Shown here: piece by piece, positions 183-27,776 of the stretch
Numbering within the stretch: position 1 is the stretch's first letter
Layout of the letters: each line of letters starts with the position of its first letter
From: a virus
Lineage: Duplodnaviria > Heunggongvirae > Uroviricota > Caudoviricetes
Reading direction: 5' to 3' (one strand)
IMG/VR virus record: IMGVR_UViG_2579778797_000012
Length of the DNA: 33,919 nucleotides
The notes under the pieces: generated by a model
Told to the model about the DNA's origin: nothing
Database searches by the model: none
Seen by the model: the letters and a program-made list of their open reading frames with translations, nothing else
Translations under genes and position numbers: made by a program

Positions 183-231
183 AAGCCCGTATTTTACCGG
201 GCTTATTCTGTGACAACCAGGATAAAGAGAT

Positions 232-1452: not shown

Positions 1453-1463
1453 TATCTTACTCC

Positions 1464-3343: not shown

Positions 3344-3685
3344 ATGAAAATCACTCTCAGCAAACGAATCGGCCTGCTCGCTTTTCTGCTGCCTTGCGCA
3401 CTGGCATTGAGCACAACTGTTCATGCCGAAACTAACAAACTGGTGATTGAGTCTGGCGACAGTGCACAAAGCCGCCAGCACGCCGCTATGGAAAAAGAGC
3501 AATGGAATGACACGCGCAATCTGCGTCAGAAAGTGAATAAACGCACTGAAAAAGAGTGGGATAAAGCCGACGCCGCTTTTGATAACCGCGATAAATGTGA
3601 GCAAAGCGCCAACATCAATGCCTACTGGGAGCCCAATACTTTGCGCTGCCTGGACCGTCGAACTGGCCGCGTTATTACCCCCTAA
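3344..3685 (+). CDS. ynfB: YnfB, UPF0482-family secreted protein
   Basis: 113-aa ORF with signal peptide ([28 protein letters not shown]), matching K-12 YnfB. Confidence 0.85.
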
Positions 3686-3719
3686 CCTGTTATTGATTTA
3701 AGGAATGTAAGGACACGTT

Positions 3720-4280: not shown

Positions 4281-4282
4281 CA

Positions 4283-4993: not shown

Positions 4994-5100
4994 AACAGTC
5001 ACCAGAGAGTAGAGATGATTCTCAATCATAGTAGCAAATACAGTACTTTACACGTTAAATGCTATGCTTAAAGAAGTTATCTTCGCGTAAGGAGCTTATG

Positions 5101-5406
5101 ATGAAACTCTCAACCTGCTGTGCCGCGCTTCTGCTCGCCCTCGCCTCACCCGCAGTACTCGCCGCGCCGGGATCCTGTGAGCGCATACAGAGCGATATAT
5201 CACAGCGCATTATCAATAATGGCGTACCCGAAAGCAGCTTCACATTAAGTATTGTACCCAATGACCAGGTTGATCAGCCTGATTCCCAGGTCGTCGGGCA
5301 TTGTGCTAATGATACGCATAAAATTCTCTACACCCGCACCACCAGCGGTAACGTCTCTGCTCCCGCGCAGTCTACCCAGGATGGCGCGCCTGCCGAACCG
5401 CAGTAA
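5101..5406 (+). CDS. ynfD: YnfD, DUF1161-family secreted protein
   Basis: MKLSTCCAALLLALASPAVLAAPGSCERIQ..., 101 aa. AGGAG ribosome-binding site at 5089-5093. Confidence 0.8.
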   Translation: MKLSTCCAALLLALASPAVLAAPGSCERIQSDISQRIINNGVPESSFTLSIVPNDQVDQPDSQVVGHCANDTHKILYTRTTSGNVSAPAQSTQDGAPAEPQ

Positions 5407-5604
5407 TACATTATCGACTGAACGCCGGATACGACACATCCGGCGATTTGAACATACAACATAATCCCACCTTATTACTCATACCCTTCTATTGATATGG
5501 ATTAATAATTCTTAACCCAAAATGGGTAGACTCCCTCTATTGTTAGCGCGCTAAATATTCAATATATAAACTTTTATATAACGATAAAGAACAGGGAGTG
5601 AGTT

Positions 5605-8031: not shown

Positions 8032-8091
8032 CCCACGACAACCATAAATTCTGGCATGACATTTTGTTTGAAAAGCAATAAGTGAGTAATG

Positions 8092-10515
8092 ATGAAAATC
8101 CATACCACAGAGGCGCTCATGAAGGCTGAAATCAGCCGTAGAAGTCTGATGAAAACCTCCGCACTTGGCAGTCTTGCGCTGGCAAGCAGTGCTTTCACTC
8201 TGCCATTTTCCCAAATGGTCCGGGCGGCAGAGGCTCCGGTAGAAGAGAAAGCGGTCTGGAGTTCCTGCACCGTTAACTGCGGGAGCCGCTGTCTGTTACG
8301 TTTGCATGTGAAAGATGACACCGTGTACTGGGTGGAGTCTGATACGACAGGTGACGACGTCTACGGTAATCATCAGGTTCGAGCGTGTTTACGCGGGCGC
8401 TCTATCCGCCGACGGATGAATCATCCTGATAGGTTGAAATATCCCATGAAGCGCGTCGGCAAGCGCGGTGAAGGTAAATTTGAACGGATAAGTTGGGACG
8501 AAGCCCTGGATACCATCAGTGATAATCTTCGGCGGATCCTGAAAGATTACGGCAATGAGGCTGTACATGTCCTGTACGGAACAGGCGTAGATGGCGGAAA
8601 CATCACCAACTCAAACGTCCCGTACCGTCTGATGAACTCTTGCGGTGGTTTTCTCAGTCGCTATGGCAGCTACAGTACCGCACAGATCAGTGCCGCAATG
8701 AGTTATATGTTCGGTGCCAATGATGGCAACAGCCCGGATGATATCGCCAATACGAAACTGGTCGTTATGTTCGGAAATAACCCGGCAGAAACGCGGATGA
8801 GCGGCGGTGGTGTCACTTACTACGTCGAGCAAGCCCGCGAACGTTCAAACGCACGCATGATCGTCATCGATCCACGTTATAACGACACTGCTGCCGGGCG
8901 TGAAGATGAATGGCTGCCCATTCGCCCTGGCACCGATGGCGCACTGGCCTGTGCGATTGCCTGGGTACTGATTACTGAAAACATGGTCGATCAGCCATTT
9001 CTCGACAAATATTGTGTTGGTTACGATGAAAAAACGCTGCCCGCCAACGCACCACGTAACGCGCATTATAAAGCCTATATTCTGGGCGAAGGGCCTGACG
9101 GCATAGCTAAAACGCCGGAATGGGCAGCAAAAATCACCAGCATCCCGGCAGAAAAAATTATCCAGTTGGCACGAGAGATCGGTTCAGCAAAACCTGCTTA
9201 TATTTGTCAGGGTTGGGGGCCACAACGACATTCCAACGGCGAGCAAACATCCCGCGCTATTGCCATGCTTTCCGTTCTCACCGGCAACGTCGGCATAAAC
9301 GGCGGCAACTCAGGCGTACGCGAAGGTAGCTGGGATCTGGGGGTAGAATGGTTCCCGATGCTCGAGAATCCTGTTAAAACGCAGATTTCCGTCTTTACAT
9401 GGACAGATGCCATCGACCATGGTACGGAAATGACCGCGACCCGTGATGGTGTTCGTGGAAAAGAAAAACTGGATGTCCCCATCAAGTTTTTATGGTGCTA
9501 CGCCAGTAACACATTGATCAATCAACATGGCGACATCAATCACACCCATGAGGTGCTTCAGGATGACAGCAAGTGCGAGATGATTGTTGGCATTGACCAC
9601 TTCATGACGGCCTCGGCTAAGTATTGCGATATCCTGTTGCCCGACCTGATGCCAACAGAGCAAGAAGACCTTATCTCTCATGAATCTGCAGGGAATATGG
9701 GCTATGTGATCCTCGCCCAACCCGCAACCTCAGCAAAATTTGAACGCAAACCCATCTACTGGATGCTGAGTGAAGTCGCCAAACGCTTAGGACCAGACGT
9801 TTATCAAACCTTTACTGAAGGTCGCAGTCAGCATGAATGGATCAAATATCTCCATGCGAAAACGAAGGAACGTAACCCTGAGATGCCCGACTACGAGGAG
9901 ATGAAAACGACCGGGATCTTTAAGAAAAAATGCCCGGAAGAACACTACGTCGCTTTCCGCGCATTCCGTGAAGATCCACAGGCAAACCCGTTGAAAACAC
10001 CTTCGGGGAAAATCGAAATTTATTCTGAACGACTGGCGAAGATTGCAGATACCTGGGAATTGAAAAAAGATGAAATTATTCATCCCCTTCCTGCGTATAC
10101 CCCAGGTTTTGATGGCTGGGACGATCCCCTGCGGAAAACCTATCCACTGCAGTTAACGGGCTTCCATTACAAAGCGCGTACCCACTCCAGCTACGGCAAT
10201 ATTGATGTGTTACAGCAGGCCTGCCCACAAGAGGTGTGGATCAACCCCATTGATGCTCAGGCACGCGGTATCCGTCATGGCGATACCGTGCGGGTATTTA
10301 ACAATAATGGAGAAATGCTGATTGCCGCAAAAGTGACTCCGCGTATTCTGCCTGGCGTTACCGCCATCGGGCAAGGTGCGTGGCTTAAAGCGGATATGTT
10401 TGGTGACCGGGTCGATCACGGCGGCAGTATCAATATTCTGACCTCTCACCGCCCTTCACCGCTGGCAAAGGGAAACCCGTCGCACAGCAATCTTGTCCAG
10501 ATCGAAAAGGTTTAA
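8092..10515 (+). CDS. ynfF: YnfF, Tat-exported DMSO-reductase-family molybdoenzyme catalytic subunit (paralog of ynfE)
   Basis: 807 aa from the second Met. Twin-arginine signal (SRRSLMKTSALGSLALA), CTVNCGSRC cluster, collinear with YnfE throughout. Confidence 0.9.
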   Translation: MKIHTTEALMKAEISRRSLMKTSALGSLALASSAFTLPFSQMVRAAEAPVEEKAVWSSCTVNCGSRCLLRLHVKDDTVYWVESDTTGDDVYGNHQVRACLRGRSIRRRMNHPDRLKYPMKRVGKRGEGKFERISWDEALDTISDNLRRILKDYGNEAVHVLYGTGVDGGNITNSNVPYRLMNSCGGFLSRYGSYSTAQISAAMSYMFGANDGNSPDDIANTKLVVMFGNNPAETRMSGGGVTYYVEQARERSNARMIVIDPRYNDTAAGREDEWLPIRPGTDGALACAIAWVLITENMVDQPFLDKYCVGYDEKTLPANAPRNAHYKAYILGEGPDGIAKTPEWAAKITSIPAEKIIQLAREIGSAKPAYICQGWGPQRHSNGEQTSRAIAMLSVLTGNVGINGGNSGVREGSWDLGVEWFPMLENPVKTQISVFTWTDAIDHGTEMTATRDGVRGKEKLDVPIKFLWCYASNTLINQHGDINHTHEVLQDDSKCEMIVGIDHFMTASAKYCDILLPDLMPTEQEDLISHESAGNMGYVILAQPATSAKFERKPIYWMLSEVAKRLGPDVYQTFTEGRSQHEWIKYLHAKTKERNPEMPDYEEMKTTGIFKKKCPEEHYVAFRAFREDPQANPLKTPSGKIEIYSERLAKIADTWELKKDEIIHPLPAYTPGFDGWDDPLRKTYPLQLTGFHYKARTHSSYGNIDVLQQACPQEVWINPIDAQARGIRHGDTVRVFNNNGEMLIAAKVTPRILPGVTAIGQGAWLKADMFGDRVDHGGSINILTSHRPSPLAKGNPSHSNLVQIEKV

Positions 10516-10525
10516 GGAGTAGCCC

Positions 10526-10639
10526 ATGACCACACAATATGGATTTTTTATCGATTCCAGCCGCTGTACTGGCTGTAAAACCTGCGAACTGGCGTGCAAA
10601 GATTTTAAAGTTGGTTACGTATCGTTTAAAATCAATTAG
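10526..10639 (+). pseudogene. ynfG: ynfG (4Fe-4S ferredoxin-type subunit), 5' fragment only; similarity ends about 10609
   Basis: MTTQYGFFIDSSRCTGCKTCELACKDFK matches the YnfG/DmsB N-terminus. The frame then reads VGYVSFKIN-stop instead of the expected DLGPEVSFRRIYEY..., and no remainder of ynfG is present downstream in the window. Confidence 0.85.
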
Positions 10640-10683
10640 ATAGCCCGTCATTTCTGCGCTCACACGTCCCAACATTGAAAAAC

Positions 10684-10717
10684 ATGCAAAGCTTTGTAAG
10701 CCGATGCAAAGCTTTGT
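10684..10717. promoter_or_regulatory. Two copies of ATGCAAAGCTTTGT (10684-10697, 10704-10717), each containing the 10-bp palindrome CAAAGCTTTG; candidate protein-binding sites
   Basis: Exact 14-bp direct repeat spaced 20 bp start to start, in non-coding DNA about 75 bp inside the ynfG junction. Confidence 0.35.
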
Positions 10718-11054
10718 GTGTCTCACTTTTGTCCCAATACCAATCCGAATCCACCCTTTGTCATCATTGAGAAATGGCAAGGAAGAAAAGGATGTTACTG
10801 CACGATTTGACAAATCCGCCAGAGCTATCGCATACTGATCGCACTGAACAAATAAGCGGTCTCCGCACCCGATAGCTTTGCGGCTTTTTTATGCCTGCAA
10901 TTTGGCATAGTTACATCCGTACAAAGGTCGGGTGGAGAGGCGTAATACAACACCCGCAAGGGGAATATGCCCAGAGCTTCTTATTTGGCTCAGTTGACAC
11001 CCGACCGCCAGCTACTAACTGGCGGTTATAAACTAAACAAATAAGGAGGTCATC

Positions 11055-11339
11055 ATGACCAGTCAACTCATCCCCGTATTCAACGGTTCTATCTCAAACC
11101 AAGCAGCCCTTCTATGCAATGCTCGCAATCTACACGCTTTCCTTGGGGTTGGTAAACGCTTTGCATCGTGGATAACAGAACGTATTGCTGAATATGGTTT
11201 CGTTGAAAATCAGGACTATATGATTGCTTCCCAAATTCGGGAAGCAAAAGGTAGAGGCGGTCACAACCGCAAGGAATACCACCTCACCCTCGACACAGCC
11301 AAAGAGCTTGCGATGGTTGACGACTGCGTCCAATACTGA
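11055..11339 (+). CDS. Short AntA/AntB-type antirepressor-domain protein (94 aa), paralog of the next gene
   Basis: MTSQLIPVFNGSISNQAALLCNARNLHAFLGVGKRFASWITERIAEYGFVENQDY... resembles the AntA N-terminal domain. Strong RBS (AAGGAGG, 11043-11049). The C-terminus (YHLTLDTAKELAMV) is shared with the downstream paralog. Confidence 0.5.
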   Translation: MTSQLIPVFNGSISNQAALLCNARNLHAFLGVGKRFASWITERIAEYGFVENQDYMIASQIREAKGRGGHNRKEYHLTLDTAKELAMVDDCVQY

Positions 11340-11588
11340 CTATACTCCGCGCCGAGGCCTCGAAAACCTCCCAAAAGCGGATTAAACCAACCCCGTCAGT
11401 GTTGGATTTTTTATGCCTGTTATTCAGTGATAGCACAGTGTGCGGTCACATCCCCGATCAATGTCGGGAGGGCGACGAATACAACACCCGCAAGGGGAAT
11501 AAGTCCGCGGTATCTTTTGGGCCGTTTCGAGCCTCCCGGCACCACATCTTGTGGTGGCATTTCTCGAAAAAAGCCAAAGGAGGTCATC

Positions 11589-12218
11589 ATGACCACTCAA
11601 CTCATCCCTGTGTTTGAAGGTACAATCTCAAATGAACCTACGCTTCTGGTGAACGCGCGTGATTTGCATGGATTTTTAGAGGTAGGTAAAGATTTTTCTA
11701 ACTGGATACGGGCCAGGCTAAACGAGTATGGATTCGTAGAAAATTTAGACTACATTCTATTTTCGCCAAATTTGGCGAAAACTCCAGGCCGCCGCCGCAA
11801 GGATTACCACCTCACCCTCGACACAGCCAAAGAGCTTGCGATGGTTGAACGTAACGAAAAAGGCCGCCAGATACGCCGCTACTTCATCGAGTGCGAAAAG
11901 AAACTTCGCAACATTCAGCCAGTACAAGCAGAACCACAGCCGCAATTCACAGCCGAGGAAATAATCCTCCTCTGCTACATGCAGCTCTGGATGGAAAAAG
12001 CCCAGGACCTTAGCAAGCAGCTGTACCCCATAATGAAAGAGCTGAACTCCTCATACACGAACAAGCTGTATGACATTGCGTTTGAGACTATCTACATGGT
12101 GACGAAGAACAGAGATGTGCTACTGAGAGAGGCGGCACGGCTTGACCAGTCGAGTTTCGTAGTTCAGCGGGCCAGACCAATGCTGAAAAGCCTGCGGGCA
12201 AGACAATTTGAATTCTGA
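11589..12218 (+). CDS. AntA/AntB-type antirepressor-domain protein (209 aa from the RBS-supported start)
   Basis: MTTQLIPVFEGTISNEPTLLVNARDLHGFLEVGKDFSNWIRARLNEYGFVENLDY... RBS AAAGGAGG directly upstream of the ATG at 11589. The track ORF starting at 11427 is an RBS-less upstream extension. Confidence 0.55.
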   Translation: MTTQLIPVFEGTISNEPTLLVNARDLHGFLEVGKDFSNWIRARLNEYGFVENLDYILFSPNLAKTPGRRRKDYHLTLDTAKELAMVERNEKGRQIRRYFIECEKKLRNIQPVQAEPQPQFTAEEIILLCYMQLWMEKAQDLSKQLYPIMKELNSSYTNKLYDIAFETIYMVTKNRDVLLREAARLDQSSFVVQRARPMLKSLRARQFEF

Positions 12219-12222
12219 TACC

Positions 12223-12247
12223 AAAGGAGCTTCGGCTCCTTTTTTTA
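12223..12247 (+). terminator. Rho-independent terminator after the second antA-like gene
   Basis: GGAGC-TTCG-GCTCC hairpin (12226-12239) followed by a 7-T run. Confidence 0.7.
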
Positions 12248-12414
12248 TACCTGAACGACAACGCCGCTGAAATCGAAGAGTTAATACAATAAAGAGAAGA
12301 GCTCAGTACATTAGATAAACATTTTTTATCATTATCTCATTGCCTTTATTCAAAAAAATAGTTACATAACGTTACTAGGTAAAATGCAAACCCTCGCTAT
12401 TTTTATCAGATTGT

Positions 12415-13641
12415 ATGCCGGTAACTATAACAAAAATCAGAACTGGAGAAGATGTTTTGTCAGCAGCCATTCACCGCATTGAATGGTTGTTTGAAACATT
12501 CTCTTCTGTATGTTTATCTTTTTCTGGCGGTAAAGATTCCACTGTACTTTTCCATCTTGTAGCCGAAGTGGCCTACAGGAAGAAACGTCGTTTTTCTGTA
12601 TTGTTCATTGACTGGGAAGCCCAGTATCAATGCACCATTGATCATATACAGAAGATGCGGATGATGTACCAAGATGTAACAGATACCTTTTACTGGGTTG
12701 CACTTCCCCTGACGACAGTAAATGGTGTCTCGCAGTTTCAGCCTGAGTGGATATGCTGGGAGCCCGGTGTAGAGTGGGTTCGACAGCCACCGGAAGATGC
12801 TATTACTGATATGGCGTATTTCCCCTTTTACCGCTACGCCATGACTTTTGAAGAATTTGTCCCAGCTTTTTCTTCCTGGTTCGCAAGTAACCAATGTAGC
12901 GTGGCAATACTGACTGGAGTCCGCGCGGATGAATCTCTTAACAGATTTATGGGACTGGTTTCCCAACGAAAACTGAGATATGCAGATGATAAACCCTGGA
13001 CCACGGCGTCACCTGAAGGTTTTTACTACACCATGTATCCGCTGTATGACTGGAAAACCAACGATATCTGGGTATATAACGCTAAAACCTGTGCAATCTA
13101 CAATCCTCTGTATGATTTGATGTACCGTGCAGGCATTCCTCTACATAATATGCGTGTCTGTGAGCCTTTTGGCCCGGAACAGCGTAAGGGACTATGGCTT
13201 TATCATGTTCTGGAGCCAGAAACTTGGGCACGGATGTGTGAACGAGTATCTGGTGCTGCCAGTGGGGCTCTTTATGCCAATGAAAGCGGGGCCTATTTTG
13301 CCCTGCGTAAACGGATGTCAAAACCATCCCATCATACATGGCGCAGCTATGCGTTCTTCCTGCTGGACGTAATGCCGGAAAGAACGGCTGAACACTACCG
13401 CAACAAGATAGCAGTCTACCTGCGCTGGTATCAGAACCGGGGATTCCCGGATGATATCCCGGATGAACAGGAAAATGATCTGGGCTGCCGGGATGTTCCC
13501 TCCTGGCGACGTATTTGTAAGACTCTCATAAAGAATGATTTCTGGTGCCGAACGCTCTCCTTCAGCCCCAACAAACCCCGGCACTATGAACGTTACCTGC
13601 AGCGTATGAATGAAAGGAGGAAGGAATGGGGAATTCTGTGA
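12415..13641 (+). CDS. ibrA: PAPS-reductase-like (PP-loop ATP pyrophosphatase fold) protein, IbrA/YbdN-like
   Basis: 408-aa ORF with the PP-loop motif SFSGGKDS near the N-terminus and a long C-terminal extension. Overlaps the downstream ParB-like gene by 16 nt. Gene symbol assigned by family resemblance only. Confidence 0.6.
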   Translation: MPVTITKIRTGEDVLSAAIHRIEWLFETFSSVCLSFSGGKDSTVLFHLVAEVAYRKKRRFSVLFIDWEAQYQCTIDHIQKMRMMYQDVTDTFYWVALPLTTVNGVSQFQPEWICWEPGVEWVRQPPEDAITDMAYFPFYRYAMTFEEFVPAFSSWFASNQCSVAILTGVRADESLNRFMGLVSQRKLRYADDKPWTTASPEGFYYTMYPLYDWKTNDIWVYNAKTCAIYNPLYDLMYRAGIPLHNMRVCEPFGPEQRKGLWLYHVLEPETWARMCERVSGAASGALYANESGAYFALRKRMSKPSHHTWRSYAFFLLDVMPERTAEHYRNKIAVYLRWYQNRGFPDDIPDEQENDLGCRDVPSWRRICKTLIKNDFWCRTLSFSPNKPRHYERYLQRMNERRKEWGIL

Positions 13642-14270
13642 CACCAGAGGTGGAGGTGCTGAGCAAGATGATTCGACAGTACTTCAGTCAGGAACAATCT
13701 GAAGAGAAAACCATACAGGCCCTGAACCATCTCCGCTGCGTACTCCATGAGATCAGCCCCTTTGCTCAAGAACCAGTGGACTGTGTGCTGTGGGTAAAAG
13801 CGGATGAAATTGTCGCTAACGATTATAATCCCAATGTCATGGCCCCAAGCGAAAAAAAATTACTGAAACAATCTCTGGAAAAAGACGGTTTTACTCAACC
13901 AATTGTTGTTTCGGAAGAAACAAGCCATTACCTGGTGGTGGATGGTTTTCATAGGCAGTTACTAGGTAGAAGAACAGTTACTGGAAAACGCCTGAAAGGC
14001 TGGCTACCAGTAACCTGTATTAATCCAGACCGAAAGGGACAAACCTCACGTATTGCCGCGACTATCCGACATAACAGAGCCAGGGGGAAACACCAGATAA
14101 CCTCAATGTCTGATATTGTCAGAGATCTTTCACGTCTTGGCTGGACTGATGAACGTATCGGAACAGAACTGGGGATGGACCAGGATGAAGTTCTGAGGTT
14201 AAAGCAGATTAGCGGGCTAACGGAGTTATTTCAGCAGGCAGATTTCAGCCCTGCATGGACTGTTACATAA
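13626..14270 (+). CDS. ibrB: ParB/sulfiredoxin-fold (ParB-like nuclease domain) protein, IbrB/YbdM-like
   Basis: 214-aa ORF with a DGFHR motif (VVDGFHRQLLG) typical of ParB/Srx-fold proteins. Strong RBS AGGAGG at 13615-13620. Translationally coupled to the upstream gene. Confidence 0.6.
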   Translation: MGNSVTPEVEVLSKMIRQYFSQEQSEEKTIQALNHLRCVLHEISPFAQEPVDCVLWVKADEIVANDYNPNVMAPSEKKLLKQSLEKDGFTQPIVVSEETSHYLVVDGFHRQLLGRRTVTGKRLKGWLPVTCINPDRKGQTSRIAATIRHNRARGKHQITSMSDIVRDLSRLGWTDERIGTELGMDQDEVLRLKQISGLTELFQQADFSPAWTVT

Positions 14271-14358: not shown

Positions 14359-14883
14359 CTACCTCAGATCACCTAATAATATATCAAGATTATTTTGCGC
14401 ATTAATGCTATTCGCCATTACTGTTGCTGCTTCTGGCAACTTTCCAAGAGCAATAAATATATTCTTAAGGCTGATTGGAATTGATGAACCATGCGGATCG
14501 CGCCACTCACCGCAAATTCTGTGAGTTTCATCACAAAGCCTGAACGCATCCCAACCTCCATATTGACCAAAAATTATGTCCATTGACTCTATTTCTGCGG
14601 GCGATAACTCCCCCAGCTCATCAACAGAAGAAAATGTACGCCACATTTCAACCTTATGATCCGCTACATCAGATATCCATGATTCCCACGGACTGTACTC
14701 GTTTTCACTTCCATCCTTAACCAAAGAATATGTCTGCGATAAAACGGGTCCTTTGTTCATAGAGAAATAATGATCACCACTAATGGGAAAACCATACAAC
14801 TCCATTGCTTTGCGGTCAGAGAGATACATCAGCTTAATGAAACGCATAGATCCGCCATGTTTTTTCAGCAAATACGCTGCCAT
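14359..14883 (-). CDS. DUF4065 (Panacea/SocA-like) domain protein
   Basis: 174-aa ORF. FIKLMYLSDRKAMELYGFPISGDHYFSMNKGPVLSQTY fits the conserved KLqKLLY...GPV core of DUF4065 antitoxin-like proteins (from memory of the family profile). No strong RBS at the annotated start. Confidence 0.5.
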   Translation of the reverse strand: MAAYLLKKHGGSMRFIKLMYLSDRKAMELYGFPISGDHYFSMNKGPVLSQTYSLVKDGSENEYSPWESWISDVADHKVEMWRTFSSVDELGELSPAEIESMDIIFGQYGGWDAFRLCDETHRICGEWRDPHGSSIPISLKNIFIALGKLPEAATVMANSINAQNNLDILLGDLR

Positions 14884-15033
14884 TTACGCAACTTTTTCTT
14901 CATTAAACATAAATCGGCTCTCTGTCTCACATGAAATACTCTTTCTGACTATATGTTAATAGCTCCGGTTATTACAGGTTAATGTGTGTTTATTTCTTAA
15001 TCAGCCCCGCACTTCCGTACGGGGCCATTTCTG

Positions 15034-18000
15034 TTAATCCACTCCCACTTTTTTGTTGTACTCGCGGTTAAAGCGATCCACGGCAACCTTCATATCCCGC
15101 TCTACCGATTTCACCATCGCCGCCTGCTGCGCCAGACTGAGAGAACTGTCGGCATAAATGGCATCGCGCTGTTTGCGCAAATCCTTCAGTCTCTTCCGGG
15201 TATCCTGCATAAGCCCGTTCATCAACAATTTTCCGTTGTTCTCGTCAATGAACGCCGTTCTTTCTGCACCGGTCAGACTCTTCAGCTCTGCGTGATACTG
15301 CGCAACCTCTGTCATCCGGTCGTACATCTTCTGCTGGTCTGCATACGGCATCACCTCACCCGAAATTTTCCCCAGGAAGGGCACCTGCTGCTCCGGTATA
15401 TCAATACCGTTCAGCGATTTCACCGCCGCATCTGTGGTTTTGGAAATGAAGCGCCCTGTCCCTCCGGAGATATAGTCAATCCAGAATTTCAGCGATTCCG
15501 GTGTGATATCCACCGCGCCGGGACGATACTGGCTGCCACCTGAGAACGCATTCAGCCAGGATGCAAACGCCTTGTACGCCTCAGGCGTTGAACGTCTGCC
15601 CAGCTGGCTGTCCGGTTTCGGTGTGCCAAATGGCATGTTCTCCTGGTAAATCTGCGCCCCCATGAAGTTTTCATTCATGGCAAGGTTCGCAAACGGACGC
15701 AGAATGGTCGGCGCTGCATTTTTCAGCAATGCCCCGGACAGTGTTTCCGACGTTTCACTGCCCACAGGACTGAATGCCCCCAGGATACCACCGACAACAT
15801 TACCGGCAGCACGTGAAGCAGTCAGGTCGCCCGCTGCCACACCTTCAGCAGTATGCCCGAGCAGGAAGAAAACGTTGTACCCGTAAGGCAGAGGAATACT
15901 CCAGTACTCTCCGGCCTTGCCCCCGAACACCGATTTCATAATGACGAGGTTACGCTCTTTCACATGAGACGGCACCTTGTCATACCAGTTAACCCCGTCA
16001 TCATCCTCCCCCGCAACACTGCGGTTAAGCGAGCCAAGCAGATAACCCGCTCCCACAGCTGCAAGCGCGATTTTCTGCGGTACATTGAGATTCTTCCAGC
16101 GAAGGCGCTCCGGTAACGGCCCGTCGCCATTAAGATGTCCGAGCGTTCTCACCAGGTTTGCGGTCCCCTGAATGCTGGCGTTGGCAAACATATACAGCGA
16201 GTTCATCAGCGCTCCCTGCTCACCACGACGGTTAAAGTTCACCGTCATGTTTTTGGCAAGAGATGCCGCCTGCTGGCGTGACAAACCGGCATCACGGGCG
16301 TGTTTATAGGCAGAAAGACGCAGAGCGTTTTCAACCGCGCCGTTGGCATCCTCGACCAGGTTCAGGAACGAATGCCATGCACCGATACTCTGGCCTTTCC
16401 ATCCTCCCTTCGCCAGCGATACAAGGCGATCCATTTCCTTCTGCTGGCCTTCAAGGTCACCCATGTTAAACCAGCCGGTTTTACCTCCGTCCTCAACAAA
16501 CTCTTTCCACACCTTCTGCCACTGCGCACCGTTGCCCGTGAGGGTTTTACCACGCAGACTGGCGTATACGGCAGACATGGCAGACCGGCTGTCTTTCACC
16601 ACAGCCAGGGCGGATAAGTTATCCAGCCCTTTCAGTTTACCGTCGCTCCTTCCCTGCTCCGCCTTCAGGTTCATCACCGCCGTCTGCACGTCACGGATGA
16701 AGTTACTGACCAGGAATTCCGGGTTATACGACGTGTTCACCGTTGCCAGGAAGCGGTTAACTTTCCCCAGCGTGCGGATTACGGCGTTACTGGTTTCCGG
16801 TCCCATATTCTTCATCGCACGCATCAGGCGCGGATCATGGAGTTTGATGTAGTACGTTTTGCCGTTCTTTTTGGTGGTGAAGTACCGGTCTGCCATCATT
16901 GCCATCGGTACAGGACGTTCGACAACTTCGTGACGGGTTTCACCGGTTTCCGGAACAACACGCTCTGCAATCGCACGCATGGTGTCCGGTCGCTCATTGG
17001 TGAATACCTGCCAGTAATCCTTGTCTGGATTATCCTGTACCAGTTTCAGGAAGGCGTTACCTACTTCATTTTTGCGATTGCGGATCAGCGATTCGCTCAA
17101 GTCCTGTATCGCCTGAGTGGACGGAGACTGTGCGCGGGATGCACGCCCCATGGCCTGCCTGCTTTCACGTCCGCCGATAGTGAAGCCTTTACCTGTACGG
17201 GGCAGTGACACCACACCGTCAACATCCTGGCCTTTCAGAGGAACGTAGTAACGGTAGGCGTTCTGCCAGGCATCCACCACACCGCTCTCTTCCAGTCCGG
17301 CCTCACGGATAAGCTCACGGCGACGGGCCAGCATATCGTCAACAATCCCTGCCAGACGGTCATACTGTGCCTGTTTGCCACTGTTACGCACACGCTGCAT
17401 GATTTCCGCCGCTTCCGCGTTGGTCATCCCCGAACCGCCGTCCGGCATTTTCGGGTTGATTTTCGCGATATGCGCGTTACGTTCCGGCGCGTGACGGGCG
17501 TAGAGGTACTCATCCAGATCGGCCTGCGCAATTTTGTAGTCCGCCAGTAATTTAGCCAGCGGCTGAACATAGCGCTCCTTCATCACGTTCAGGTCGTTTT
17601 CCGCCTTCCCGTGGAAGAGTTCTTCCGCCATATAAGCGTTGTTACTGTCGTCTATTTTTCCGCCAGTTTTACGGATATTCTCCTGAACAGCTTTCAGCAC
17701 CTGGAATTTATCCTGCATCTGGCGCACAAAACGCGATGCAATTGTCTCTTCCGGTGTCAGACTGCTGGTACGGGAGTAATGCGGCCCCTTGCGAATATCT
17801 TCAGGATAGAGTATTTTATCCGCAGAGCCGCGATAAGAATGTTCCCCTTTGGGCAATTGGAGTCCTCTGTGCAGAAGGTTATCGCGGCTTAATTTTTCTC
17901 TCCGGTACAACGTTAACCCGGTCATTTCCATACTCTTCAGTTTTTTTCCATTTTCTGTACCGTAAACAGAAGCTACCTTGTTGATTTCCAGACGCGACCG

Positions 18001-21000
18001 GACAGCCTTCATGTGTACCGCTGACACCACCGGATCACCATTTTTATCCACGGCATCAAGCAGCATCACAACCGCATTTCTTTCTGTCGCTGAGTGGTAA
18101 ATTGCATCCGGATCGTGCATCAGTTCCGGTAGTCTCTCGATAACATCCATCGGCACCACATGTTTCACACCATTGGTGGCCTTACGCACAGTGTCGCGGG
18201 AGATAACCAGCGGCAAATCTGGTGCGCCAAGGTGACGCAATACCGGCGGCGTACGCCCGATGTTTACCGTTAAATCCGTTGAGCGCAGAGACTTCATCAT
18301 TCTGGCAAGGTCATCACGATAACGCTCGCCCTCACCTTCCGGCACTTTGAACGGATCAGGCTTACCGCTACGGGAGTACTGAGACGATGCGCCAGCGCCA
18401 TCCTCACGCGGCGTGTAACCTTCCCGCACACGCTGGCCTAACGTGCGAATAGTTTCGCGAACAAGTCTGATATCGTTCAGCTCTGTCGGCTTCAGTAACC
18501 CCGTGCGACGCAGTACCCCTTTGACCAGGGCAACAACACGCTCCCACGCCGCCACAAATTTATTCGGCTGTTTCTCCGCCATATGTGCCAGAAATTCACC
18601 CGCCTGCACTTCCGGTGATTCCTTACCATAAGACGCATCAACCTTACGCCAGGCTTCACGGATGGTGGCGTTATCACTGTCACGGGTTTTCAGCACGGTC
18701 TTAATAATCGTCTGATATTCCGCTGGCGTGACTACATGCTCCATTGCATGGTGGATAATCTCGTGACGCAGCTTCTCGCGAACGGTCCGCCCGTCAGGAA
18801 TGTTATCCGCCACCAGGACAATTTCACGTTTATCCGGACGATAGAACGCATGCCCCCTGCCGTAACCGTCGAACGATTCACCCGCCAGCGCTTCAGCCTC
18901 TTTCTGTGACTTCACCACGCGGACCTTCAGGTCACTGTCCTTAATGCCACTCATCACGCCACGGGCAACCGCTTCAACCTGCGGGACCGGGCTGCCTTTG
19001 GCTTCCGCACTGCGGTTAACATCCGAAATGAGATTGCCTTCAGGTGTGCGGGTCACGCCCTTACGGGAATAAAACGCAACGCCCTTGTCCGTCTCACGGG
19101 TTTTCAGCGTACTGAACAGGTGATCGAATGCATCACGAATACCGCCATCCAGTTCCGCATTCGTCGGATAAGCCCAGGTGTTATCTGTGTTGTGCTCAGG
19201 TGCCTTACGGATATTGACCAGATAATCATTCTCCACGCCAGCCGTACGCGCTTTATCCTGAACATAACGCTCAAAGGCACGCGCCGCCATTTCAACATCC
19301 GTTGACCAGTACGGTTTTGAGCGCACCTCATCGAGAAGCGCTGAACGACGCGGCATGTCACTGCTGTTGATCGCTTTCATCACGCCTTTAAACGCGTCGT
19401 AAACCTCCTGACGTACCGGATATTCCGCATCAACATATCTGCCGTCTTTAAATACGCGCCCGGCACGCTGTGCTTCCGTCATATAGTCGCCACCTGACGT
19501 GATCTTCCCGTCAGTGGAAACATCATAACGACCAAAATAATTATCCAGTGAATGGAACCATTCGTGGGCCAGCGCCCCCGGTCCGTTACCTTTTGTCAGG
19601 TTGATTGCCACCTCACCCGGCTCATAGTGTGCCGCCGCCTTACCCTTACCACGGGCACCAAAAGCAAGCCCAAGACGACCGTTCAGAGAAAGCGCTTTTG
19701 TCGGCACGTTCAGCACATCAGCCAGGTCATGCAGCGAGTCATAAGCCCGGTTCAAATCAGCCTGACGACGCGGACCTTCCACATAATTACCAAACTGCAC
19801 ACCACGAAAACCAAACGCATCACTGAACTGCTCCGGCGAAACATCCCCCTTGCGGCGTTCTGGTCCGGTACGATCGCGGTTGGTGGCGTTACGCTGCTCC
19901 TCACGCGAAATCTCCCGCATCTCCTTCACATGACGAACAAGCTCATCACGATGTGAATCAATGTACTTACGCGCATCACTGGCTGACTTAAAGCCACCTC
20001 TCACCCGCATTTTGTTTTTGCCATAAGCGATAAAAATATCGCCACTGCGGGTATTCCGGTAAACGTCAAAGCGGATTTTGTCATCCGGTGACGGTGCCGT
20101 TTTTTCATCTCCTTTCGCCTGTGACTTTTCCTCCAGCTCTGCAAACCAGACTTTCGCCTTTGTCAGTAATTCATCCCTGCTTTCCGAGAAAAAGAGGTTA
20201 GTCCCCTTATTGTCCTTATTGCGCAGTGAATAAAGTTTCTGTGGCGGATCGTAACGCTTCCCTCCTGCCGCCTGATACACACCCGATACCACCCGATAAG
20301 CAGAAGCCTTGTCCATCTGTGAGGGTGGCAGAGTGCGTAACAGTTGCCAGGTATCCGCGTAACGGGAGGGCATTCTGCCTTCCATCCATTCTGCGAGGCG
20401 TTTCGCGCTGACCGTTCCGTTCAGCATTTCCGATACACTGTGTCGTACTTTTTTTACGCTCTCCCCCCAGCCAGCCGTATTGTGTTTCGTCTTCGCCGGA
20501 ATATCGCTACGATACAGCGCTATCATTGCCAGGGTGTCAGCATCAGCCCCTTCGCTCGCCAGTTTTGCGTAGTCCGGTTTCGGGAACAGTTTGCTCAGCG
20601 GCTGCGTGGCATAATCCCTGTCTTCCAGCGTTTTACCCAGTGTTTCAGCAAGCTGTGCATAACGGTGTTTTGCCGCGCCCTTAATTTCTTCACCAAAGTC
20701 TTCAATTTTCGCACCACGCGCCTGCTGGTGAGTGCTCGGTTTATCTACCGGCATCGGCACCTCAGTATCCGGAACATCGGTTATGGTCTGGCGATTATCC
20801 CCGGTCTGTCTGCGTGCTTCTGCCTGCTGTGCCAGTTCCGGAAGGGAGTCACGAACCATACGAGGGAGTGATTCAGGCTGTGGCATATCAACCCCACGCT
20901 GACTTTCAGGTGCAGGAAGTCCTTCACGCACTGGTGCTGTGGCGTTCTGCTCATCCGGTGACGGCAGACCACGACGAACCGGTTCGCCCTCCAGTATTTC

Positions 21001-23397
21001 CCCCCGGCGACCAGCGGCATTTTCCGGTGCCTGCGCACGTCCTTTCTGGAAACTCTGGCCCTTCACCTCACCGGTTGTGGTAAAACGACCACCACGTCCG
21101 GCCTGATTTTCATCCGGCGTACGCGCCACTTCTCCCGGTAACGGATATCCCTGTCCGGGATGAATATCGCCGGGAGCGGGAAGGCGTGGACGCTCAGTTA
21201 ACTCCTGAGCTGTCGGACCGGCATCACCTTCAGCCATCTGTGAACGCACCAGCTCTTCCGCCGTCGGCACGTTGCCACGGGCAAGGCGGGCCTGCACTTC
21301 TGTATCATCTCCCGTAAAACCCCGGAATCGCGGGTCACGCATGAACGCTGGCTGCTCCATCGGATCAGCATCAGCAATACGCTCTCCGTCAGCCAGGGTG
21401 TTAATGGTTTCCGTTGCCACATCTTCAGAGAACGCAGGATTATCCATTTCAACGGCATACTGATTCTCACCTTTCTTCACTACGGACGGTTTCAGGCCGG
21501 TGGCGCTGGCATTGCGAAAAACATCGCTACCCATGGCGCTTTTCTCATCCGTGAAATAACGGTTGTCCGGACGCACCTTTTCAATGCGTTCTGCTGGTCT
21601 GGACGCACCACTCCCGTTAATTTCAATACGAACTTCATCCGGATCGCGGAACCGCACCGTCGGGTAAATACTCCCGTCGCCATCATCCGCATTTTCCGGC
21701 TGTGGCTGTGCCTCCGGTCTGGCCTCCTGCTGAGGGCGAAGCACATCACGGATAGCCTGTAACTGCTGCTCTTCAGTATCAGTACGCCCTTCCTTCAGGC
21801 TGAGTTTTCGGTATTCCTCAAGCAGTTCAGGGCGCGGCTTCGCCTTCAGCTCATCCATTACCGCCTGTCGCTTCGCCTGTTCATCCAGTTCATTCAACAG
21901 CTGGCTGGCGGCTTCCCGGCGATGAACGGCAGACGTGTCTCCCTCATGTGCCATATCCGCATCAGCATACTGTTCCAGAAGCTGCTCGCGATTCATCCCC
22001 TGCATGGATTCACGATGCTGTGCCACCGGATCAACCGGTTCGGGTTGCGGGGCTGCGTCGTCCTGCTGCACGGTTTCAGCATCACGCATGGCTGCTTCTT
22101 CTGCGGCCTGACGTCTGCCACGATATCCGGCAACCGCACCGAATGGAGCCCCCATCGCAGCACCAAAGGCTGCACCTTCGATCGTTGCGTCAGCCACGCC
22201 CTCCCACGGTGACACATCCATTCCGGCGGTCTCACGCAATGCCGTGTTTTCCTGATAGCGCGAATAGGCGTTCTGTGCCCCGTTAATTACGCCCTGTTCC
22301 GTGGCATTTCTGACAATGCCGCTTTTAACGGTCTTCGCTGTGCCTCGTGTCACCAGATTAAACAGTTGTGCGTCACCCAGTTTTGCCGCCATGGCATTCA
22401 CAGCCAGCAATTCAGGATCGGTTGCCAGCTGCGCGCGCACCTCATCGGCAACACGCTCTTTTGCCAGGTCCATTTTCTGGCGATCAGTAAGCTGTGCGTG
22501 CTGTGGATCTGCATCAATTGACAAAAACGTCTGCTGAAATTTCGGTGACTGCGCCAGCTCAGCGTAATCCGCATTAAGAACAGCATCTGCTGCCGACATT
22601 GCACTCTGCCCCTGTGCACTGGCTGTGGAATGGGTGATCAGGCCCGCATGGAAGAAATCCGTCATTTTTTTATCGACAGCTTCTGCTGCCAGTGCCGTGG
22701 CTCTTTCCGGCTGCACTCCTGCCGCGATGTATTTTTTCTCCAGCCCGGCGGTCAGCGTTCTTTTCAGTGCGACCTGTCCCACCTTTCTAACCACACCGCC
22801 AGCAACCAGATCAGGTACAAGCGCACCAATCAGGTTTACACCCTTCGTCAGCAAGACCGCAGAATCATCATAGCCTTCACTCATTGGCGTGTTCAGCGCA
22901 CGAACAGCACCCGGCGACATCTGATCTGTCAGCCATTCATCCGAGGCTTTGGCACCATCACTGACTGCCTTACCGGTTGCTTTCAGACCTTCACCGACAG
23001 TATCAGTGACCGCGTTTTTACCTGTTCCATCGGGAATGTTTTTAATCGCATCTCCAACAGAAGGTGGCGCGCCCAGTTCCTTTTGCGTGGAGGAAGGCGG
23101 CATGTAAACATCCGTCATGAAAGACGACAACCCGGCAAGCGTTTTTACAGGATTATTTACAAATCCATCACCGAGTCCACGGACCATCTCCCCTGTTCCC
23201 CGGACGGACTGGGCGAAACCTTTACCCATTGTTGGCAATACATCACCGAGGCTGAACGATGTGCTGTGATCAATGGCATTCTGCGGGTTGCTGAAAAAAT
23301 CCTGCCAGTAATTTTCTCCCGGCTGCTTAATGTTCAGGCTGCTGCGGTTCTGGTTACCCAATTGCGCTTCAGGGCGCTGCTCATCTGAAAAAGCCAT
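15034..23397 (-). CDS. Giant multidomain protein (2,787 aa) with two HExxH metallopeptidase-like motifs; putative phage polyvalent or effector protein
   Basis: Single uninterrupted ORF with GGAG 8 nt upstream of the ATG. HEWFH at nt 19552-19566 (about residues 1278-1282) and HEIIHH at nt 18748-18765 (about residues 1545-1550). Low-complexity A/Q/E/P-rich N-terminal third. Function inferred only. Confidence 0.6.
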   Translation of the reverse strand: MAFSDEQRPEAQLGNQNRSSLNIKQPGENYWQDFFSNPQNAIDHSTSFSLGDVLPTMGKGFAQSVRGTGEMVRGLGDGFVNNPVKTLAGLSSFMTDVYMPPSSTQKELGAPPSVGDAIKNIPDGTGKNAVTDTVGEGLKATGKAVSDGAKASDEWLTDQMSPGAVRALNTPMSEGYDDSAVLLTKGVNLIGALVPDLVAGGVVRKVGQVALKRTLTAGLEKKYIAAGVQPERATALAAEAVDKKMTDFFHAGLITHSTASAQGQSAMSAADAVLNADYAELAQSPKFQQTFLSIDADPQHAQLTDRQKMDLAKERVADEVRAQLATDPELLAVNAMAAKLGDAQLFNLVTRGTAKTVKSGIVRNATEQGVINGAQNAYSRYQENTALRETAGMDVSPWEGVADATIEGAAFGAAMGAPFGAVAGYRGRRQAAEEAAMRDAETVQQDDAAPQPEPVDPVAQHRESMQGMNREQLLEQYADADMAHEGDTSAVHRREAASQLLNELDEQAKRQAVMDELKAKPRPELLEEYRKLSLKEGRTDTEEQQLQAIRDVLRPQQEARPEAQPQPENADDGDGSIYPTVRFRDPDEVRIEINGSGASRPAERIEKVRPDNRYFTDEKSAMGSDVFRNASATGLKPSVVKKGENQYAVEMDNPAFSEDVATETINTLADGERIADADPMEQPAFMRDPRFRGFTGDDTEVQARLARGNVPTAEELVRSQMAEGDAGPTAQELTERPRLPAPGDIHPGQGYPLPGEVARTPDENQAGRGGRFTTTGEVKGQSFQKGRAQAPENAAGRRGEILEGEPVRRGLPSPDEQNATAPVREGLPAPESQRGVDMPQPESLPRMVRDSLPELAQQAEARRQTGDNRQTITDVPDTEVPMPVDKPSTHQQARGAKIEDFGEEIKGAAKHRYAQLAETLGKTLEDRDYATQPLSKLFPKPDYAKLASEGADADTLAMIALYRSDIPAKTKHNTAGWGESVKKVRHSVSEMLNGTVSAKRLAEWMEGRMPSRYADTWQLLRTLPPSQMDKASAYRVVSGVYQAAGGKRYDPPQKLYSLRNKDNKGTNLFFSESRDELLTKAKVWFAELEEKSQAKGDEKTAPSPDDKIRFDVYRNTRSGDIFIAYGKNKMRVRGGFKSASDARKYIDSHRDELVRHVKEMREISREEQRNATNRDRTGPERRKGDVSPEQFSDAFGFRGVQFGNYVEGPRRQADLNRAYDSLHDLADVLNVPTKALSLNGRLGLAFGARGKGKAAAHYEPGEVAINLTKGNGPGALAHEWFHSLDNYFGRYDVSTDGKITSGGDYMTEAQRAGRVFKDGRYVDAEYPVRQEVYDAFKGVMKAINSSDMPRRSALLDEVRSKPYWSTDVEMAARAFERYVQDKARTAGVENDYLVNIRKAPEHNTDNTWAYPTNAELDGGIRDAFDHLFSTLKTRETDKGVAFYSRKGVTRTPEGNLISDVNRSAEAKGSPVPQVEAVARGVMSGIKDSDLKVRVVKSQKEAEALAGESFDGYGRGHAFYRPDKREIVLVADNIPDGRTVREKLRHEIIHHAMEHVVTPAEYQTIIKTVLKTRDSDNATIREAWRKVDASYGKESPEVQAGEFLAHMAEKQPNKFVAAWERVVALVKGVLRRTGLLKPTELNDIRLVRETIRTLGQRVREGYTPREDGAGASSQYSRSGKPDPFKVPEGEGERYRDDLARMMKSLRSTDLTVNIGRTPPVLRHLGAPDLPLVISRDTVRKATNGVKHVVPMDVIERLPELMHDPDAIYHSATERNAVVMLLDAVDKNGDPVVSAVHMKAVRSRLEINKVASVYGTENGKKLKSMEMTGLTLYRREKLSRDNLLHRGLQLPKGEHSYRGSADKILYPEDIRKGPHYSRTSSLTPEETIASRFVRQMQDKFQVLKAVQENIRKTGGKIDDSNNAYMAEELFHGKAENDLNVMKERYVQPLAKLLADYKIAQADLDEYLYARHAPERNAHIAKINPKMPDGGSGMTNAEAAEIMQRVRNSGKQAQYDRLAGIVDDMLARRRELIREAGLEESGVVDAWQNAYRYYVPLKGQDVDGVVSLPRTGKGFTIGGRESRQAMGRASRAQSPSTQAIQDLSESLIRNRKNEVGNAFLKLVQDNPDKDYWQVFTNERPDTMRAIAERVVPETGETRHEVVERPVPMAMMADRYFTTKKNGKTYYIKLHDPRLMRAMKNMGPETSNAVIRTLGKVNRFLATVNTSYNPEFLVSNFIRDVQTAVMNLKAEQGRSDGKLKGLDNLSALAVVKDSRSAMSAVYASLRGKTLTGNGAQWQKVWKEFVEDGGKTGWFNMGDLEGQQKEMDRLVSLAKGGWKGQSIGAWHSFLNLVEDANGAVENALRLSAYKHARDAGLSRQQAASLAKNMTVNFNRRGEQGALMNSLYMFANASIQGTANLVRTLGHLNGDGPLPERLRWKNLNVPQKIALAAVGAGYLLGSLNRSVAGEDDDGVNWYDKVPSHVKERNLVIMKSVFGGKAGEYWSIPLPYGYNVFFLLGHTAEGVAAGDLTASRAAGNVVGGILGAFSPVGSETSETLSGALLKNAAPTILRPFANLAMNENFMGAQIYQENMPFGTPKPDSQLGRRSTPEAYKAFASWLNAFSGGSQYRPGAVDITPESLKFWIDYISGGTGRFISKTTDAAVKSLNGIDIPEQQVPFLGKISGEVMPYADQQKMYDRMTEVAQYHAELKSLTGAERTAFIDENNGKLLMNGLMQDTRKRLKDLRKQRDAIYADSSLSLAQQAAMVKSVERDMKVAVDRFNREYNKKVGVD

Positions 23398-23409
23398 ACA
23401 GACTCCAGT

Positions 23410-23437
23410 AAAAAAAAGCCCGACACGATGGTCGGGC
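23410..23437 (-). terminator. Rho-independent terminator 13-40 nt upstream of the giant ORF start
   Basis: Minus-strand GCCCGAC-CATCGT-GTCGGGC hairpin (23418-23437) followed by T8 (complement of the A-run at 23410-23417). Confidence 0.7.
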
Positions 23438-27044: not shown

Positions 27045-27776
27045 TCAGAATTTCAGGCCAATACCTACAACAACCCCGCTCGTGCGCCAGTCACCAGATC
27101 CGGAGCTTTCATACGCGACATCCATAGCAACACTTTCATTCAGGTTAAATTGTGCACCAGCAGCCCATGCAAGTGCTGTTTTTTTCGTACTGTTGCTTTC
27201 AGAAAATCCACCGGTACTGTTAATGTTGTCCTTAATTTTCAGGTCAGCGGTAACTTTAGCTACGCCCATACCAGCCATTGCATACACACTGAGGTATTCG
27301 TTAAACCGCCACGAAGGACCCGCTAACAGGCTCCAGTAATTCGCTCTGATATCTGTTCTTCCTGAAGCTGCCGGATTTTTAACCTCTCTGGATTCATCTC
27401 CTGGGTTAATATCAATAAATGCCTGCGCATTAGTCATAGAACGCGCCCATGTAAAAGATGTTATAACACCAATCTCATCCGTTATCTCATAACGATACCT
27501 GATGCTCATCCCCTGAGGAGATTTGCCTTTGCCATCATGCCCCCGGACAGAAGCATCTGCATATTCGCCTGAATTGAAGTAGTGTCTGTTTGTAAAACGG
27601 TTAAAAGTATCAAGATTATAAAGACTTAAATCCTTAACAAAATTGTTCAGTCCAGAGAGCTGAAGATGAGCGTATCCGAAAGAAACTGTACTGTCACCTT
27701 GTGCTGCACAGGCAGGGGCTGCTACAAAACTCATCACAAAAGTTGTGCACGCAAAAATAATTCTGGTATGTTTCAT
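27045..27776 (-). CDS. lom: Lom/Ail/PagC-family outer-membrane beta-barrel protein
   Basis: Signal peptide (MKHTRIIFACTTFVMSFVAAPACAAQG) and a C-terminal ...YESSGSGDWRTSGVVVGIGLKF closely resembling the lambda Lom / Ail-family terminal strand. Confidence 0.75.
   Translation of the reverse strand: MKHTRIIFACTTFVMSFVAAPACAAQGDSTVSFGYAHLQLSGLNNFVKDLSLYNLDTFNRFTNRHYFNSGEYADASVRGHDGKGKSPQGMSIRYRYEITDEIGVITSFTWARSMTNAQAFIDINPGDESREVKNPAASGRTDIRANYWSLLAGPSWRFNEYLSVYAMAGMGVAKVTADLKIKDNINSTGGFSESNSTKKTALAWAAGAQFNLNESVAMDVAYESSGSGDWRTSGVVVGIGLKF

Follow-up and report, generated by a model that had tools for sequence, protein, structure and literature searches.

A giant virion gene and a broken Panacea gene as neighbours at the end of a 933W-like prophage

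We examined two adjacent genes in a 33,919-nucleotide (nt) stretch of viral DNA (IMG/VR record IMGVR_UViG_2579778797_000012; hereafter the window, to whose full length all positions refer): a giant late gene encoding a protein of 2,787 amino acids (aa), and a 174-aa open reading frame (ORF) of the DUF4065 or Panacea family. A first-pass annotation, made from the sequence, had proposed that the product of the second might neutralise a toxic module of the first. Both ORFs are indeed present, on the same strand and 150 base pairs (bp) apart; the pairing itself is not supported, and the locus consists of known parts in chance juxtaposition. We consider it probable (roughly 0.8) that two genes without any relationship have come to lie side by side where a 933W-like prophage in ynfG has its right end, and that the Panacea gene is the leftover of a PanA-PanT cassette. 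Labels of the type LNNN and PNNNN denote the loci and proteins of the analysis. The elements of the junction are:

14359..14883, minus strand: Panacea (DUF4065, PanA-type antitoxin) ORF, 174 aa, starting at the conserved Met10; phrog_1281
14884..14910, minus strand: original 5' part of the Panacea reading frame (start codon ATG 14908-14910, MFNEEKVA, TAA at 14884-14886)
15003..15026, minus strand: GC-rich hairpin of 10 bp, without a U tract, beginning 8 nt past the stop of the giant gene
15034..23397, minus strand: giant late gene, 2,787 aa, last gene of the virion operon; phrog_616 from end to end

The first part of the window (nt 1-10610) is Escherichia coli chromosome, with rspA-like, DUF1283, GNAT, UPF0257, ynfE and ynfF genes. 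The junction between host and prophage lies at ~10610, inside ynfG, where the match to uninterrupted genomes stops ~28 codons into the gene; the same ynfG junction is found in 82 of 5,426 complete E. coli genomes. At the DNA level 186 phage records, among them 933W, VT2-Sakai, Shigella phage 75/02 Stx and further Shiga toxin (Stx) phages, match the late region with at least 90% identity, and the prophage is of the short-tailed, 933W-like type (Sepvirinae).

Co-occurrence of the two genes and alleles of the MuF-C segment

A toxic module of the giant protein could be sought in, for example, its MuF_C/PBECR domain, which is predicted to be a BECR-fold, ribonuclease (RNase)-like effector:

17899..18168, minus strand: MuF_C/PBECR domain, aa 1744-1833 (Pfam PF18819, E 1.7e-17)

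If the Panacea protein were the cognate immunity of such a module, it would protect the producing cell until packaging. Various observations are compatible with this idea: the genes are adjacent and co-oriented and could be co-transcribed; the aligned MuF-C variants share an invariant N-terminal His (K/R/E/D-H), central His (A-x-H) and Ser (of ASVYG), including the putative catalytic His and Ser; Panacea antitoxins neutralise many toxin folds, RNases included (PMC8832971); and five distant relatives of the locus have a Panacea gene within 2 kb. Nothing in the 150-bp spacer clearly separates the two transcriptionally: no sigma-70-like promoter was scored there, the hairpin was not scored as an intrinsic terminator, a single terminator-like match did not exceed chance expectation, and Rfam recovered no known RNA family between the two genes. 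The reading is nevertheless already contradicted by the distribution data, and we regard it as very improbable.

Among the complete E. coli genomes that contain the junction between the giant gene and the Panacea gene, most of the latter is kept in only 18 of 425 (in one of the 18 together with an IS1 element), and it has been deleted in about 96%. The phage records give the same picture, with a full-length Panacea match in a single 933W-like record (PhiR5_2) versus 186 that match the giant gene. The relatives in which Panacea is deleted keep an intact giant gene, whose C-terminal half is 96-100% identical, and phage Sp5, in which the homologous ORF80 was shown to be essential and functional when supplied in trans, has only a Panacea remnant. 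The proposed neutraliser is deleted or truncated in nearly all relatives, in which the giant gene is still intact and functional.

The alleles of the putative toxic module do not track the Panacea gene either. The identity of the MuF-C alleles to that of the window (aa 1701-1800/aa 1801-1900) amounts to 100/100, 98/99, 96/85, 93/80, 92/89 and 44/60%, and full-length Panacea genes (97-100% identical) were found beside four of these alleles (100, 92, 93 and 44%), with the same alleles occurring next to a deleted Panacea gene as well. The segment is mosaic at aa ~1700-1900 (nt 17700-18300), where copies that are otherwise 96-100% identical fall to 44% (L003, L019, L090 and L100). Judged from these alignments it looks like an exchangeable effector cassette, and, as a by-product of the analysis, it emerges as a hot spot of recombination between E. 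coli prophages that hardly differ elsewhere. The MuF-C domain is followed by a conserved GLQLP(K/E) motif. A second variable block comprises LPD5 (aa 1001-1200, nt 19800-20400), where some E. coli copies (L014, L020, L046 and others) are 63-75% identical between flanks of 99%.

The more distant relatives were represented by 101 loci drawn from IMG/VR and from a set with a single genome for each species; their identity is below 80%, and no fewer than 700 bp of sequence follow downstream. The 255 ORFs of 100-400 aa within 2.5 kb downstream of the giant gene were scanned against Pfam. Panacea accounted for five of the 255 ORFs among the matches listed (the best 25 of 49 families in the second Pfam batch); a local iterated hidden Markov model (HMM) found the same five genes and none further in the ORFs of that second batch. 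The other 96 loci have no Panacea gene nearby, and these include the nearest relatives outside E. coli (Salmonella and Citrobacter, 72-75%), which carry other cargo downstream. The five carriers are all Halomonas-type prophages in which the Panacea gene lies on the opposite strand, 0.7-2 kb from the giant gene, and has its own small ORF behind it, which encodes either a soluble protein of 135 aa or a hydrophobic, likely membrane-spanning protein of 141-155 aa. Co-occurrence across related prophages therefore speaks against the proposed pair. The Halomonas-type loci fall into two groups (L105, L135 and L136; L107 and L108), and carry in this accessory position two Panacea cassettes other than that of the window, one paired with the hydrophobic protein and one with a different protein of 135 aa. 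The slot past the last late gene accommodates integrases, repressors, antirepressors and toxin-antitoxin cassettes, and Panacea cassettes have landed in it at least three separate times.

The Panacea gene and its missing partner

The family assignment of the 174-aa ORF in the first-pass annotation was borne out by profile search: it matches SocA_Panacea (PF13274) with an E-value of 2.5e-19 and 70.7 bits (cut-off 25.7), over positions 2-112 of the 113 of the profile, and RefSeq already names it 'Panacea domain-containing protein'. The domain is real, occupying aa 16-127 (nt 14503-14838); the ORF is not a whole gene, as it starts at Met10, directly past a TAA at codon 9, and the complete domain lies 3' of this premature stop. 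The ancestral start is found 27 nt upstream of the listed ORF, and in a spacer alignment codon 9 is TAA in the window versus CAA (Gln9) in phage 75/02. All seven readable full-length copies (the window, PhiR5_2 and five IMG/VR contigs) have the TAA, the deleted copies retain the CAA, and one full-length copy (L009) carries an IS1 insertion at codon 7/8. The relatives examined outside the Sepvirinae retain the sequence MFxEEKxAQMAAYLL, the nine lost residues being the most conserved N-terminal stretch. In a database of 5.8 billion proteins no called protein with the ancestral N-terminus exceeded ~70% identity; the nearest one that has it (P0004, 69%) is intact at the DNA level.

The gene has been reduced much further in most of the sister phages, by two independent deletion alleles that leave remnants of 27-37 codons. 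In 933W, VT2-Sakai and their kin, codons 28-158 are deleted and the frame is shifted, leaving a 31-codon remnant, and in 75/02, POCJ13 and their kin everything after codon 37 is lost. In one further genome (L208, NZ_CP145707.1) an IS3-family element has removed the 5' part of the Panacea gene together with the 3' end of the giant gene.

PanA-PanT systems have a two-gene toxin-antitoxin arrangement (Kurata et al. 2022, PMC8832971), and this arrangement was recovered in every relative of the Panacea gene that we examined outside the Sepvirinae (38-69% identity): a conserved ~134-aa gene lies next in line, overlapping the Panacea stop by 4 bp or starting a few bases downstream. The identities of the Panacea proteins to that of the window were as follows, each with the ~134-aa partner:

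E. coli P2-like prophage L203: 69%
Salmonella lambdoid prophage L204: 59%
Mixta and related contigs L205-L207: 58%
Yersinia phages YeP1-3: 50%
Klebsiella phage: 47%
IMG/VR contig L012: 41%
E. coli phage Lys8385Vzw: 38%

Partner genes were located at 5558-5965 (L004), 5568-5975 (L005), 5570-5989 (L006), 4473-4877 (L204), 6143-6547 (L206) and ~6546-6941 (L203), and two that had not been called were recovered by HMM (E 3e-59 and 4.5e-74). The partner family corresponds to phrog_19071 and is marked by the motifs HLHIICNDP, VLVVNI and GDHPFIKHPSY; searches of Pfam, PADLOC and the Protein Data Bank (PDB) matched it to nothing significant, and PHROGs gives no function. We consider it the likely cognate toxin, probably an uncharacterised PanT, which is a by-product of the analysis.

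These cassettes occur in unrelated prophage types and none of them adjoins a giant gene. The regular partner is moreover a separate protein that is unlike the giant one, a comparison of the ~134-aa family with the giant protein by hhalign giving a probability of 0.2% and no similarity, which is a further point against a role of Panacea as immunity of the giant protein, as is the premature stop in the window's copy. In the window itself, the Panacea domain is present; there is no adjacent co-oriented toxin gene and no intact antitoxin frame. Only 88 bp separate the Panacea stop from the convergent IbrB gene, and an HMM search of all six frames for the ~134-aa partner yielded no homologue in the window (best E 1.8). 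Taken together, the Panacea gene appears to be the decaying, orphan antitoxin half of a toxin-antitoxin cassette.

The truncated gene might alternatively be functional by itself, as a solo antitoxin against the PanT toxins of hosts or rival prophages (anti-abortive infection or anti-addiction), independent of the giant protein, and translated by re-initiation at the TAA-ATG or expressed from its own promoter in the lysogen. In line with this, the whole Pfam domain is retained, Met10 directly past the stop is conserved across the family, the 174-aa form represents a cluster of 137 member sequences, the gene occurs in a sequenced phage (PhiR5_2, for which the record gives K-12 MG1655 as host), and few substitutions suffice to change the toxin specificity of a Panacea protein (PMC8832971). 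Opposed to it are the loss of the nine conserved N-terminal residues, the lack of any scored sigma-70-like promoter in the spacer, and the dispensability of the gene, which is deleted not only from about 96% of the E. coli copies but also from well-studied infectious phages. Furthermore, the closest intact PanA-PanT cassette (69%) gave no megablast match in the 5,426 complete E. coli genomes, and a close cognate toxin must therefore be rare in this species. On balance we find a solo antitoxin unlikely, and that the 174-aa product is still made and useful on its own slightly more so. The more specific scenario, in which re-initiation near the 3' terminus of the late transcript, itself Q-dependent, would yield the protein and it would serve as a solo antitoxin against PanT abortive-infection toxins or as a PBECR buffer, is more doubtful again, and the version in which Panacea would buffer a leaky PBECR RNase-like cassette in lysogens is the less likely one.

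The giant protein and the surrounding prophage

The giant protein is already known: it is a homologue of Sp5 ORF80 (ECs1242), of phi24B gp47 and of the large ORF of 933W, the 186 phage records mentioned above, which include 933W, VT2-Sakai and phi24B-type phages, carry the gene with 90-97% DNA identity, and RefSeq already annotates the product as 'LPD38/LPD5 domain-containing protein'. Besides MuF_C, the following regions were delineated:

19816..20265, minus strand: LPD5, aa 1045-1194 (Pfam PF18799, E 2.3e-45)
19105..19872, minus strand: zincin-like metallopeptidase region, CLCA_X-like, aa 1176-1431, with HEWFH (NCBIfam NF041907)
18448..18990, minus strand: second putative zincin-like unit, aa ~1470-1650, with HEIIHH (motif and AlphaFold2 topology)
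15037..17889, minus strand: conserved C-terminal module, aa 1837-2787, also present in giant virion proteins from Vibrio, Ralstonia, Burkholderia and Bacillus podophages
15373-15990, minus strand: LPD38, aa 2470-2675 (Pfam), inside the C-terminal module

LPD5, LPD1, MuF_C and LPD38 all pass the Pfam cut-offs. The match to NF041907 (E 5.5e-44) stays under the whole-protein cut-off of that model, and LPD1 (aa 1355-1434, Pfam, E 2.1e-23) lies at the C-terminal end of the zincin-like region. The two HExxH motifs that had been reported earlier are real and lie where they were placed, with HEWFH spanning residues 1278-1282 (nt 19552-19566) and HEIIHH residues 1545-1550 (nt 18748-18765); they are not due to chance, because the composition of the protein predicts 0.05 such motifs. 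The second putative unit had no match in the profile libraries. In an AlphaFold2 model the stretch around HEIIHH shows a helix, three strands, the HExxH helix and another helix, with a predicted local distance difference test (pLDDT) score of 60-85, which is informative on topology only; the model of aa 1150-1840 had low confidence overall (pLDDT 55) and retrieved nothing significant with Foldseek. Among the Foldseek matches of small domains, the best target TM-scores (0.41-0.49, not significant) belonged to toxins of the RelE/HigB type. The C-terminal ~950-aa module gave a confident model that has no solved structural relative. The N-terminal half, which had been described as a long region of low complexity, is in fact only moderately biased (15% A in aa 1-460; 8-11% each of A, E, R and P in aa 460-1000). 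Neither a helicase or methylase (DarB-type) module (Pfam) nor an N-terminal MuF head domain was detected in the giant protein, and sequence searches of the PDB and PADLOC returned no match for either the giant or the Panacea protein.

The domains LPD5, LPD1, MuF_C and LPD38 and the homologues phi24B gp47, Sp5 ORF80 and JC1 gp69 support the earlier suggestion of a large polyvalent protein that is delivered with the DNA. LPDs, zincin metallopeptidases and MuF-C/PBECR domains mark the phage-type polyvalent proteins; MuF-C was classed as PBECR, a predicted RNase with a BECR fold like that of RelE and colicins, the zincin units were proposed to process the polyprotein, and LPD5 is possibly enzymatic (Iyer et al. 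2017, PMC5512222). The protein of the window likewise combines several unrelated domains of this class in one polypeptide, and its gene lies among the virion structural genes. As for its relatives, ORF80 of Sp5 (VT2-Sakai; 2,793 aa) is essential for plaque formation and lysogenisation and can be complemented in trans, and phages that lack it still package DNA normally and have heads of normal shape. The phi24B protein gp47 (2,811 aa, same domains) is abundant in virions by mass spectrometry, absent from the cryo-electron microscopy map, and has been proposed to be an encapsidated ejection protein (2026 preprint). JC1 gp69, a distant homologue from the Burkholderia group, is virion-associated (51 unique peptides by mass spectrometry). 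By analogy, a role of the giant protein as a polyvalent internal virion or ejection protein is supported; its packaging would follow from the presence of gp47 and gp69 in particles, and delivery into the cell is what the ejection role proposed for gp47 would imply.

Conservation is highest in the C-terminal 950 aa (96-100% among the E. coli copies, and homologous across phyla), with 42% identity to the proteins of Vibrio phages, 32% to Bacillus phage Dartukuta, 27% to the Ralstonia Gerry/GP4-like phages, 27% to Burkholderia BcepIL02 and 22% to Bacillus Page-like phages. The matching giant genes of these distant podophages are also the last of the virion operon. The variable segments of the protein are internal, and the C-terminus is not a variable tip, nor is the downstream ORF conserved, which argues against the alternative suggestion of a polymorphic toxin. 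The relatives exchange payload domains N-terminal to the conserved module (P0223, P0255 and P0246): Phage_lysozyme was seen in a Salmonella copy, ART-PolyVal (PF18760) in several, and methyltransferases or LPD3 elsewhere.

Within the late operon the giant gene is preceded by tail fibre, lom and phrog_601/594/596/611 genes. The reported position downstream of the lom-like and tail genes was confirmed, the lom-like gene (27045-27776) and a tail-fibre gene (28782-30050) lying upstream in the same operon direction. Its comparison with the place of a tape-measure gene in lambdoid gene order was misleading, since a short-tailed 933W-like phage has no such gene. The tape-measure reading of the giant gene was likewise rejected, the host phage type being a podophage.

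Beyond the Panacea gene lies the accessory end of the prophage, which is arranged in the same way in PhiR5_2 and was annotated with Pfam:

10611..14270, plus strand: accessory end region, convergent with the Panacea gene
11055-11339 and 11427-12218, plus strand: two AntA/AntB antirepressor-like genes
12415-13641, plus strand: IbrA-like PAPS reductase/DUF3440 gene
13626-14270, plus strand: IbrB-like ParB_N gene

The IbrA-like protein gave weak matches to BrxP and DndC models. PAPS-reductase-like genes recur near the giant virion gene across unrelated podophages: besides the IbrA-like and IbrB-like genes of the window, Ralstonia phage Gerry (L042 1-517) has cysH two genes upstream of its giant gene, and in Burkholderia phage JC1 a PAPS reductase (gp65) lies within the virion module (PMC9144972). 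Two copies of sRNA-Xcc1 (Rfam RF02221; 69 and 73 bits, gathering score 53) were found on the plus strand at 10926-11014 and 11463-11548, the first just 5' of the AntA/AntB-like gene at 11055-11339 and the second overlapping the 5' end of the listed ORF at 11427-12218.

A reading of the locus and its comparison with known systems

In the reading that we favour, two unrelated neighbours with one gene in decay, the giant protein would be made late, packed in the capsid and released through the tail together with the DNA. Its mostly helical C-terminal module of ~950 aa may serve packaging and/or build a conduit across the envelope, one or two zincin-type peptidase units may process the polyprotein or cut envelope components, and the recombining MuF-C/PBECR RNase-like cassette and LPD5 would act on the newly infected cell. 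The late operon of lambdoid phages depends on Q antitermination, and the giant gene should therefore be silent in lysogens; because it is silent there, and because the cell that expresses it lyses, the giant protein would require no immunity protein. The Panacea ORF would be the antitoxin half of a type II PanA-PanT cassette that was once present in the accessory (moron) region past the late operon. Its toxin half of ~134 aa would have been lost; the antitoxin frame is broken at codon 9, and in most sister phages the gene is cut down to a short remnant. A 174-aa product could arise by re-initiation at the ATG that adjoins the TAA.

Several points weigh against this reading. The two full-length Panacea alleles differ at 4 nt, each a nonsynonymous change within the final 34 codons, which is too few to show relaxed selection, and synonymous sites are saturated relative to the outgroups. 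All full-length copies belong to one lineage, with the same IbrB flank, and the TAA thus represents a single event and not repeated decay. The Pfam domain has remained complete despite the stop, and cells may still produce an active 174-aa protein. The ~134-aa family is likewise a putative toxin. The proposed role of the giant protein in ejection, finally, is drawn from homologues, through their genetics and proteomics, and from a single preprint.

On the favoured reading, the giant protein works without any Panacea-type partner, and the slot past the last late gene of these podophages would be a place where toxin-antitoxin cassettes land and decay. Had the pairing been real, a phage polyvalent protein would have gained its first described immunity partner, and the reach of Panacea would have been extended to giant virion effectors. 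The C-terminal module of ~950 aa is a reasonable target for studying DNA ejection by short-tailed Stx phages.

Among known systems, the locus is closest to the giant genes of the Sepvirinae (Sp5 ORF80, phi24B gp47 and the 933W large ORF), with 90-97% DNA identity over the whole gene, the same Pfam domains and the same place at the end of the late genes, behind lom and the phrog_601 gene. It differs from these Stx phages in the insertion of the prophage in ynfG, in the absence of a stx locus from what is seen in the window, in an accessory end that holds IbrAB and a full-length Panacea ORF, and in the allelic variants of MuF-C and LPD5. With the polyvalent proteins of Bcep22 (gp75), BcepIL02 (gp70), JC1 (gp69, 'DarB-like') and the Ralstonia GP4-like phages (PMC5512222) it shares a giant multidomain virion protein encoded by the last structural gene, the zincin metallopeptidase, MuF-C/PBECR and LPD domains, and an LPD38-containing C-terminal module of 27-42% identity; no DarB-type helicase/methylase was detected in the protein of the window, and the payload domains differ.

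The resemblance to PanA-PanT (PMC8832971) consists of a complete Panacea domain and of relatives outside the Sepvirinae that form two-gene operons, whereas in the window the partner is missing and codon 9 is a stop, and none of the libraries that were searched linked phrog_19071 to a family of known function. With the MuF polymorphic toxins (Jamet et al. 2017, PMC5576092) the locus has in common a head-associated protein with toxin-like domains and a small downstream ORF on the same strand; unlike in those systems, no MuF head domain was detected, the giant gene is not located beside the portal gene, the toxin-like domain is internal with a conserved C-terminus behind it, and the downstream ORF is not kept in the relatives.

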